The notes beneath the pieces were generated by a model that was not told where the DNA came from, ran no database searches, and saw nothing but the letters and a program-made list of their open reading frames with translations. This document shows, one piece after another, positions 22,763 to 25,021 of a DNA stretch of 64,000 nt. Positions within the stretch are counted from its first letter, which is position 1. Every line of letters starts with the position of its first letter. Location: assembly GCA_963720545.1 (NCBI GenBank), contig OY970399.1, positions 3,136,001 to 3,200,000 of the forward strand, in the 5' to 3' direction. Source of the stretch: an uncultured Acidobacteriota bacterium. GTDB lineage: Bacteria > Acidobacteriota > Vicinamibacteria > Fen-336. The position numbers and the translations under genes were made by a program.

Positions 22763-23107
22763 ATGAAGCTCGGCATCACCGATAACGTGGACTGCGCGCA
22801 CTTCCTCCCCGGCCACCCCAAGTGCGGGCGGCTGCATGGCCATACGTACAAAGTGGAGGTGGTGATCGAGGCCCCGGCGCCCGCCGGCGGCATGATCGTC
22901 GACTTCGCCGAGCTGAAGGCGAAGACGCGGCAGGTGCTGGAGCAGTACGACCACCGCAACTGGAACGACACGCTCGAGTATCCGTCGGTCGAGAACATCT
23001 GTTCGCTGTTGTGCGCAGGCCTGCGCGCAAAGATCGATTTCCCCTTCGTCTTGCGCGTCTACGAAGGCGCCCTGAAGTGGGCCGAGATGGATAGCCGGGA
23101 AGCCTAA
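22763..23107 (+). CDS. queD: 6-carboxytetrahydropterin synthase
   Basis: AHFLP..CGRLHGHTY, DFAELK, DHRNWN, PSVENI, VYE. Confidence 0.88.
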   Translation: MKLGITDNVDCAHFLPGHPKCGRLHGHTYKVEVVIEAPAPAGGMIVDFAELKAKTRQVLEQYDHRNWNDTLEYPSVENICSLLCAGLRAKIDFPFVLRVYEGALKWAEMDSREA

Positions 23108-23300
23108 TCGACGAATTGGCCGTCTCGTCCCCGCCCAATTCGTCGATTTCCGTTGCCCGCTATCGACGGATTGGCTGGCCGTCCCGATCCAATCCGTCGA
23201 TTTCCTTTGTTCCGTTTCCCTGGCGCTTGCGACAACGTTCGTTGGCTGTCCCCCGAGCGCTTGCGACAACGTTCGTTCCTGCTTCGTTCAGGCGCTTGCG
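23107..23300. repeat. Left arm of REP/BIME-like hairpin array
   Basis: Hairpins ATCGACGRATTGG-N14/15-CCAATYCGTCGAT at 23107-23147 and 23162-23201. 21-mer GCGCTTGCGACAACGTTCGTT at 23223-23243 and 23257-23277. Confidence 0.9.
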
Positions 23301-23330
23301 TCAGCGGTTTTTTGCGCTGCTTCTATTTCT

Positions 23331-23358
23331 GATTAACTGTGTCCGGACACAGTAACAA
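23331..23358. repeat. 28-bp direct repeat copy 1 with 18-bp perfect palindrome core
   Basis: GATTAACTGTGTCCGGACACAGTAACAA; core ACTGTGTCCGGACACAGT at 23336-23353. Confidence 0.92.
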
Positions 23359-23894
23359 TGCATTCACGGAGCAAGCGCGCAGCGGCCGGGGCCATCTTCG
23401 TCGTGGTTGGCGGCCTGTTTCTCCTTTGGCGGGCATGCTGCGCCGGTGTTGCGTGTCGAACGGCGCTTGTGGTCCCCGACCTGCCGCCATATCGGGAAGA
23501 ACTCTCAGCAGCACGATCTGGCAGGCGCATCCACGATGCGAGCGTGCCGCACGCCGTCCCCGCCTATGGGGGCGAGGGCGACGACGTTGAATTCTCGCCC
23601 GACGGAATGTTCGCAGCGGTTTCATTGAGGGCGAGGCTGTACGCCGCCGGGCGCGAGTCGACCCACACGGTCAACGTGTGGGATCGACGCAAAGGCACAC
23701 GCACCGACGTCGTTGCTATTGGCGAAGCTGATCCGGGTTCCGGAGCCTCGCACGACTACAAGTGGTCGCGAGATTCTCGCGCGCTCTTGATCTACGGAAC
23801 AGGAGTGCTGTGGCCGGAATCGGATTGGCGGGAGCTGTGCCTCATTTACTTGCCGGAGACGAGTCAACTGGACCGAATCGAGCCGTGCCGCTGA
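23358..23894 (+). CDS. Membrane-anchored hypothetical protein with TolB/WD40-like blade motifs (cassette cargo)
   Basis: N-terminal TM segment, FSPDG and WSRDS motifs, more A/T-ending codons than neighbours, fills the space between the two direct repeats. Confidence 0.65.
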   Translation: MHSRSKRAAAGAIFVVVGGLFLLWRACCAGVACRTALVVPDLPPYREELSAARSGRRIHDASVPHAVPAYGGEGDDVEFSPDGMFAAVSLRARLYAAGRESTHTVNVWDRRKGTRTDVVAIGEADPGSGASHDYKWSRDSRALLIYGTGVLWPESDWRELCLIYLPETSQLDRIEPCR

Positions 23895-23899
23895 GGGTC

Positions 23900-23927
23900 G
23901 ATTCACTGTGTCCGGACACAGTAGCAA
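23900..23927. repeat. 28-bp direct repeat copy 2 with 18-bp perfect palindrome core
   Basis: GATTCACTGTGTCCGGACACAGTAGCAA; 26/28 identical to copy 1; core at 23905-23922. Confidence 0.92.
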
Positions 23928-23940
23928 CGACCGTTGTCAA

Positions 23941-24185
23941 CAACGAACGTTGTCGCAAGCGCCTGGGAAACGGACAAAAGGAAATCGACGGATTGGGCGG
24001 GGACAGCCAGCCAATTCGTCGATAGCGTAACGACCGTTGTCGCAAGCGCCTGGGAAACGGCCAAAAGGAAATCGACGAATTGGGCGGGGACGAGACAGCC
24101 AATTCGTCGATAGCTGGCAAGCGCCTGGGAAACGGACAAAAGGAAATCGACGGATTGGACGGGGACAGCCAGCCAATCCGTCGAT
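23941..24185. repeat. Right arm of REP/BIME-like hairpin array (three tandem units, inverted relative to the left arm)
   Basis: Units GCAAGCGCCTGGGAAACGGMCAAAAGGAA plus hairpin at 23984-24023, 24071-24111 and 24146-24185; periods 87 and 75 bp. Confidence 0.92.
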
Positions 24186-24187
24186 GA

Positions 24188-25021
24188 TTACGGTTCAGCC
24201 GCTTCCTTGGCGATGAGTTGCGCAAGCGCGGCCATCAGGCGGCGGGTGAGCGGGCCGGGGGCGCCGGTGCCGAGCGTGACGGCGTCGATGGCGACGACCG
24301 GCAGGATTTCGCGCGACACGCTGGTGATGAAGGCTTCGCTCAAGTGCTTCAGGTCGGCGAGGGACACCGGGTGTTCATCGATCGGCAGCACCGTCGCGGC
24401 GACTTCGAGGACGAGGCTGCGGGTGACTCCCTTGAGGACGCGGTCGCCTTCGGTGCGCAGCGTGCCATCGAGGATCGCGAAGAAGTTGCTGCTCAGGCCT
24501 TCCAGGATCTGGCCGTCGCGGTCCGCCATCAAGCCTTCGTGGATGTCCTTGCCCAGCGACTCTCGTGCCGCGTGTGCCGCCGACAGGAAGCGCGTGTCCT
24601 TCGCGTGCGGGTCGTCGCGGTGCAGTTGCACCGTGGCGCAGCGGACTCCCTGCTCATAGAGGGCGGCGTCGAGAGGGGTAAACGGTTCGATGCCGATGAA
24701 GAAACGCTTCGGCGACGGAGAGAAGGTGAGGCGCAGGCGCGACTCGCCGTCGCGGCCGGCCAGCAGATCGGCCAGCGCTCGACGCACGGCCGAGTGGTCG
24801 AGGGTCGCGGGCTGTCCCAGGACCCAGACCGACTCCTCCAGACGGCGCAGGTGCTGGTCGAGGCGCAGGATTCGCGATCCGTCGTAGGTGCGGAAGGTCG
24901 TGTAGGCGCCGGGGGGAAGGAGTTTCGCCGCGGCGTCGACCGAGCACGTTCCGAGGTTGGCCTCGAGCAGTCCAGTCGCGGTCAGCTCGAATGTGCCGCT
25001 TTGTGAATTTCCCTTATACAT
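24188..25021 (-). CDS. Aminotransferase class IV (IlvE/PabC/D-amino-acid aminotransferase family)
   Basis: YTTFRTY, HLRRL, ILEGLSSNFF, LKGVTR, EAFITS. Confidence 0.88.
   Translation of the reverse strand: MYKGNSQSGTFELTATGLLEANLGTCSVDAAAKLLPPGAYTTFRTYDGSRILRLDQHLRRLEESVWVLGQPATLDHSAVRRALADLLAGRDGESRLRLTFSPSPKRFFIGIEPFTPLDAALYEQGVRCATVQLHRDDPHAKDTRFLSAAHAARESLGKDIHEGLMADRDGQILEGLSSNFFAILDGTLRTEGDRVLKGVTRSLVLEVAATVLPIDEHPVSLADLKHLSEAFITSVSREILPVVAIDAVTLGTGAPGPLTRRLMAALAQLIAKEAAEP

Follow-up and report, generated by a model that had tools for sequence, protein, structure and literature searches.

The spacer between a queD (PTPS-family) gene (22763–23107, plus strand) and a convergent class IV aminotransferase gene (24188–25021, minus strand), the left and right host borders of the locus, holds a single open reading frame placed between two copies of a palindromic repeat. 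The original prediction, made on the window (the whole stretch of 64,000 nucleotides analysed here), saw in this arrangement a possible undescribed site-specific gene-capture system with a recombinase or transposase encoded elsewhere. The locus raises the question of what the palindrome is, which enzyme belongs to it, and how the gene came to lie between its two copies.

The bracketed unit and its cargo gene

The two 28-bp direct repeats proclaimed in the original prediction are real: they occupy positions 23331–23358 and 23900–23927 on the plus strand, lie 569 bp apart and agree at 26 of 28 bases. Each contains a perfect, CG-centred 18-bp palindrome (palindrome A; copy 1 at 23336–23353, copy 2 at 23905–23922), a predicted docking site of the DUF222-HNH protein discussed below, and the window contains these 2 matches to the 18-mer against 0.01 expected in shuffled sequence. 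The 10 flanking bases of the 28-mer are less informative than they appear, because 5 of the 253 pairs of identical 18-mers in the genome, including the pair around the cargo ORF, reach 26/28. The cargo ORF itself (23358–23894, plus strand) encodes 178 amino acids with a hydrophobic N-terminal segment. Its boundaries are those described originally, with the ATG 4 nt past the first palindrome, so that the left repeat shares one base, the A, with the start codon, and the TGA 10 nt before the second. The unit had also been said to leave no room for a promoter, and no sigma-70-type promoter was detected between 23000 and 24300; nor does the unit carry a nuclease gene.

The unit is centred within inverted arrays of other repeats (23107–23312 and 23941–24185). 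The outer part of the left arm consists of two B hairpins with 13-bp stems (23107–23201), the first of which overlaps the queD stop codon, followed by three C-type modules (family D4; 23218–23312). Three C+B modules (23941–24185), inverted relative to the left arm, end 2 nt from the aminotransferase stop codon. The pairing of queD with the aminotransferase gene is kept in 9 of 11 relatives, and the comparison of this interval showed that the whole 1.08-kb insert is missing there: the gap measures at most 29 bp in seven of the nine and 211 and 1173 bp in the other two, against 1080 bp here. In relative G022 (L005) the spacer houses an unrelated secreted collagen-like, cysteine-rich gene; thus, the queD-aminotransferase spacer accepts insertions.

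An empty allele with one palindrome and no ORF, which the original prediction had envisaged, exists in one metagenome contig. This contig (173 nt, depth 2.4) comes from one of four sequencing runs and joins position 23356 to 24029; the same run also covers the cargo ORF. Its left 100 nt are unique in the genome except for stretches of 24–26 nt. As a single contig in repeat-rich DNA, the empty allele is compatible with insertion as well as with deletion. The circle junction of the 569-bp unit, also anticipated, was not found in the four sequencing runs among the matches listed.

The cargo gene has a GC3 of 0.70, compared with 0.84–0.90 in four neighbour genes, which bears out the weaker GC bias of its codons; this value lies under the 1st percentile of the genome (0.735, codon-based gene calling). 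Searches of Pfam and NCBIfam assigned it no family. Five database proteins match the product, one of them being itself, and a homologue at 69% apparently represents the same locus in a sister strain, because its C-terminal tail is translated through the palindrome. Among seven homologues from metagenomes, three have attC on both sides (one as a member of a four-site attC array), in another two the beginning of a downstream attC is visible by eye, and two have none; the palindrome is absent from all seven loci. A true homologue was present in 1 of 150 relatives (G356, L235), where it is the first cassette behind the integrase IntI (461 bits) in a complete integron; the attC of this cassette is split by an IS110 element. 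The cargo ORF was thus rightly taken for a mobile cassette-type gene. Because its homologues are attC-flanked and one lies behind IntI, the gene is, as judged by sequence comparison, from the integron cassette pool, with its leader and attC lost at this locus.

A palindrome dispersed through the genome

The site recurs throughout the genome, as foreseen, with 23 exact 18-mers and 70 matches within 3 mismatches. Copies and variants number about 80, mostly intergenic and in REP-like mosaics; 69 of the 73 A-type sites lie outside called genes, and sites are present in all ten tenths of the genome. Two main variants differ by a compensatory pair, and there is a third. Spacers between convergent genes make up 23 of 52 site-bearing spacers, compared with 60 of 538 other long spacers. 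The palindrome folds into a 7-bp stem, no Rfam family reaches its cut-off on it, the flanking bases differ among sites, and the 18-mer has no GTAG or CGTC foot. Flanking homology is shared on one arm by 104 site pairs and on both arms by 7, with 31 of 81 sites unique on both sides (counts taken with no control run). Homology between sites mostly stops at the palindrome, a pattern that either a joint or a minute inserted unit should leave. Beside clpB, a 1.3-kb mosaic (contig C1 of this genome, G000, 2621885–2623100; L018) contains ten palindromes and tandem modules.

Most sites are solitary, and the multi-cassette arrays of alternating site and ORF that had been suggested were found neither in this genome nor in five Elusimicrobiota genomes. 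Brackets of one to three genes number 8, versus 2.6–3.2 expected by permutation (p 0.002–0.01), and single-gene brackets 3, versus about 1 (p 0.06–0.10). Codon-atypical genes fill four of the eight bracketed units and ordinary genes the other four; housekeeping genes, e.g. proC, are also bracketed. Genome-wide, genes adjacent to sites are no more foreign than genes adjoining other spacers, and this overall lack of enrichment does not bear out a dedicated cassette system. The clearest further cargo unit (G000 C1 2887340–2889805; L174) comprises an FAD-binding oxidoreductase gene and an LCM-type methyltransferase gene, both codon-atypical, flanked by direct repeats of about 70 bp centred on a variant palindrome. 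At G000 C1 2580890–2582070 (L016), two sites within inverted D-type arms enclose three small ORFs, of which one weakly matches ribbon-helix-helix antitoxins, and an empty version of this foldback is found at 2088065. A single-gene bracket similar to the one studied here occurs in relative G007 (L208).

A DUF222-like/HNH nuclease family accompanying the palindrome

As to the enzyme supposed to be encoded elsewhere, a candidate does exist, although it is an HNH nuclease, and no recombinase or transposase accompanies the site. Its gene is present in four copies (G000 C1, near 84.3, 1210.5, 1269.8 and 3585.1 kb), the first of which has an internal stop and the second of which (1210480–1211853) encodes 457 amino acids. 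In the protein, a floppy linker joins a DUF222-like region at the N-terminus to an HNH domain at the C-terminus, and all four genes carry the palindrome, either upstream, in frame within the linker, or at the 3' end. The HNH domain matches PF01844 above the cut-off, with its catalytic and zinc motif intact and a fold matching HNH nucleases. DUF222 (PF02720) is matched below the cut-off by three of the four copies and above it by two homologues, and 35 of 62 N-domains match at E ≤ 0.1. Three degenerate D-type modules lie directly upstream of the broken HNH copy (G000 C1 83950–84300); the repeat mosaic may therefore derive partly from HNH elements.

The link between gene and palindrome extends to other genomes. 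In 40 relatives the exact 18-mer occurs ten times, in three genomes, with nine occurrences inside family genes and the tenth 32 nt from a contig end. Thirty homologous loci were fetched by protein, and 25 remained once two loci of the genome itself and three weak partial matches had been dropped. The perfect motif is present at 16 of these 25 and, with one mismatch, at 18, against 0 of 11 control queD loci; the motif had been derived in part from these same loci, and related genomes do not count as independent. A motif-free scan returned 17 of the 25 family loci, versus 1.3 expected, and 1 of 11 and 1 of 9 loci in control sets. At the homologous loci the variable palindrome bases change on both arms together, i.e. 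in a compensatory manner, and the peptide encoded by the site, retained in 105 of 120 homologues, covaries as DNA symmetry requires. Moreover, palindrome variants follow protein clades; covariation of the recognition helix with the site was not significant over 2–3 independent contrasts.

Across genome contigs there are at least 94 palindrome loci (after removal of 6 duplicate rows), with Elusimicrobiota and Acidobacteriota as the main groups and some overlap with the relatives; among the matches listed, 31 of the 94 have a family gene around them or no more than 500 nt away, and the remaining 63 have none. In relative G025, the nine perfect palindromes among the matches listed are all within family genes. 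The family gene was found in 5 of 5 Elusimicrobiota genomes with repeated sites and was missing in 4 of 5 genomes from other groups in which the 18-mer occurs just once; the fifth, from Polyangiales, has 36 family matches, with the motif at 2 of 20 loci. In a distant DUF222 clade, 12 of 25 loci contain a palindrome of another kind; within the phylum, 8 of 14 genomes with two or more copies have a family match, compared with 11 of 286 others, kin not being independent. Three near-identical viral contigs (L231–L233) contain the 18-mer once each, as does L230, with no family gene nearby. In Elusimicrobiota (L070, L101, L164–L166, L173) the palindrome is found 25–39 nt ahead of the N-domain, flanked by a -10-like box on one side and the start codon on the other, a position that would be that of an autoregulatory operator. 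In many family genes (upstream regions L033–L062) a TATAAT-like box precedes the start codon by about 10 nt, which suggests leaderless transcripts.

The predicted fold of the N-terminal domain resembles the DNA-binding domains of ParB, KorB and Noc, with scores (Raf1 6.3, Foldseek E about 1) that are moderate by the standard of helical domains, and neither the structure model nor the Pfam scan revealed a CTPase domain. This N-domain is predicted to be a ParB-type helix-turn-helix that would bind the palindrome as a dimer. Since the palindrome is scattered genome-wide and also lies in or beside nuclease genes, it is likely the binding site at which the DUF222-like/HNH protein docks and probably the entry point of the cargo, which was probably inserted at one palindrome, leaving a copy on each side. 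The explanation that we favour, and hold to be fairly probable, is that of a nuclease with its cognate palindrome, whose free, REP-like copies act as joints that occasionally take in cargo. The tethered HNH domain would nick or cut DNA where the protein is bound or close by, and the ends would be joined there by host repair. Such joining would carry free palindromes into spacers past stop codons and rearrange the repeat modules alongside; now and then it would capture passing DNA, for example a cassette that had been excised and had lost its attC. Capture would then be an occasional by-product, not an ordered array. Weighing against this explanation are the moderate fold scores, the low identity of the G000 palindrome to parS and NBS, the scarcity of the motif in the Polyangiales genome, the genomes that have a single 18-mer and no family gene, the lack of foreign-gene enrichment beside sites and the four brackets filled by ordinary genes.

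Competing explanations and known systems

If the palindrome were instead the true recombination site of a dedicated cassette system, with the unit cycling as a 569-bp circle through the DUF222-HNH protein or an unrecognised recombinase, the flush, promoter-less single-gene layout, the one-site empty allele, the second and third units (at 2887340 and 2580942 in G000), the excess of brackets of up to three genes and the similar bracket in G007 would all follow, and the 28-mer can be read as 11-6-11. We regard this as quite unlikely. Arrays are missing here and in the five Elusimicrobiota genomes, no circle junction appeared among the matches listed, and single-gene brackets are in only borderline excess. 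The genome has just two tyrosine recombinases, neither of them IntI nor adjacent to a site; the symmetric core confers no direction; and HNH nucleases are cutting enzymes not known to religate DNA. Bracketing by chance is likewise unlikely. The cassette gene would have arrived by illegitimate recombination and the two palindromes independently, the empty contig reflecting a later repeat deletion or another locus. About 56 spacers hold a site, for which about one single-gene bracket is expected, and the bracketed housekeeping genes, the frequency of 26/28 flank identity and the unenriched foreign genes agree with such an origin; however, the ORF has been stripped of its leader and attC precisely, with edges only 4 and 10 nt away from the sites, it is central in an inverted array within a spacer that is otherwise mostly 29 bp or shorter, and the left part of the empty contig is nearly unique.

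It is very improbable that the palindrome acts as a hairpin in RNA or DNA, or as the operator of a host regulator, having been spread by other means and simply accumulated in floppy linkers of the HNH genes. Against it stand the confinement of the listed G025 palindromes to family genes, the site just before the N-domain in Elusimicrobiota, the tracking of protein clades by the variants and the lack of an Rfam family at cut-off. Moreover, two parS sites of the genome, one of them canonical, lie elsewhere, at 2.24 Mb (G000 C1 2240896–2240951, 39 bp apart); they are distinct from the palindrome and adjoin no palindrome or HNH gene. The 7-bp stem, the enrichment in convergent spacers, as in terminator-like REPs, and the 63 of 94 listed sites remote from family genes are what a hairpin or operator would show.

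Our favoured reading, a nuclease with dispersed cognate joints, also has to be placed among known systems. The site had been said to match neither attC (an R'' RYYYAAC ... R' GTTRRRY bulged hairpin) nor the dif layout of XerC/XerD, whose arms have the inner bases ATAA/TTAT, and this holds. The 28-mer does split as 11-6-11, but its inner bases are TGTG/CACA, and 80 dispersed copies do not fit a dif or pdif module. The unit resembles integron cassettes in its promoter-less single-gene layout and in its cargo, whose homologues are attC-flanked, one directly behind IntI. An integron cassette at this locus was rejected, as there is no attC, IntI or array, and the bounding perfect palindromes have no R boxes or bulges. 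In this one-contig, 95% complete genome the best match to the integron integrase model TIGR02249 is 79 bits against a cut-off of 265, and a profile built from eight attC sites of homologous cassettes has a best E of 0.09, with none near a palindrome site. The recombinases expected beside the site did not materialise: both tyrosine recombinases lie far from any site, and the genome has no match to the HUH/RAYT models PF01797 and NF047646 or to the IS110 recombinase (PF02371), nor was a reverse transcriptase found in it. Of the gene-capture system initially proposed, the mobile gene, the recurring site, a candidate enzyme encoded elsewhere and the empty allele therefore stand, while the recombinase or transposase and the arrays do not.

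REP, REPIN and BIME elements with their RAYT (TnpA-REP), as well as REPtrons and TIRtrons, are systems in which palindromes flank a cognate DNA-processing gene (PMC3733652). The present case shares with them short spacer palindromes downstream of genes, mosaic clusters and copies flanking the cognate gene. It differs in that it has no HUH tyrosine transposase and no GTAG/CGTC foot, its partner is a DUF222-HNH protein, and its 18-mer palindrome has no spacer and also occurs in frame inside the partner gene; the available part of the account in PMC3733652 does not mention HNH. Thus, the system works like REP/RAYT yet belongs neither with it nor with integrons or dif modules. DNA-binding domains of ParB, KorB and Noc bind palindromes (PMC7383237), and the predicted N-domain fold and the perfect 16–18-bp palindromes, suited to a dimer, recall ParB-parS, Noc-NBS and KorB-OB. 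The site of the distant DUF222 clade is 12/16 identical to parS and NBS, whereas the G000 palindrome matches them at 4/16 and 6/16. Unlike ParB and Noc, the partner protein lacks the CTPase domain, ends in HNH and is multi-copy and patchy, its sites are genome-wide and not clustered at the origin, and the genome has its separate canonical parS pair. With the REP13E12 family it shares DUF222 matches in the N-domain, a C-terminal HNH and multiple copies, but it represents a shorter, diverged clade whose G000 copies fall below the Pfam cut-off. The available text of PMC10589994 names REP13E12/HNH/DUF222 as a repeat class only, and in the parts available of that paper and PMC3592412 the family is named with no function, palindrome or cargo. 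The literature searched listed no paper on the pairing of DUF222-HNH with a palindrome.

A bolder version, which we offer tentatively and would sooner doubt than accept, is that DUF222-HNH proteins are ParB-derived, site-docking nucleases driving integrase-free capture. Palindromes would act as programmable joints for the insertion and removal of repeat modules, of foreign genes (attC-stripped cassettes among them) and of the nuclease gene itself, and the locus would be a filled joint beside its empty allele.

DUF222-HNH (REP13E12-like) proteins form a large multi-copy family for which the literature searched describes no mechanism. With a cognate palindrome the substrate is defined, which opens binding, cutting and mobility to direct tests. 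Should free sites accept cargo, REP-like repeats would have a second class of enzyme behind them besides RAYT, and integron cassette genes a way of becoming fixed in integron-free chromosomes. The paired protein and site variants would constitute a natural set of site-specific nucleases.
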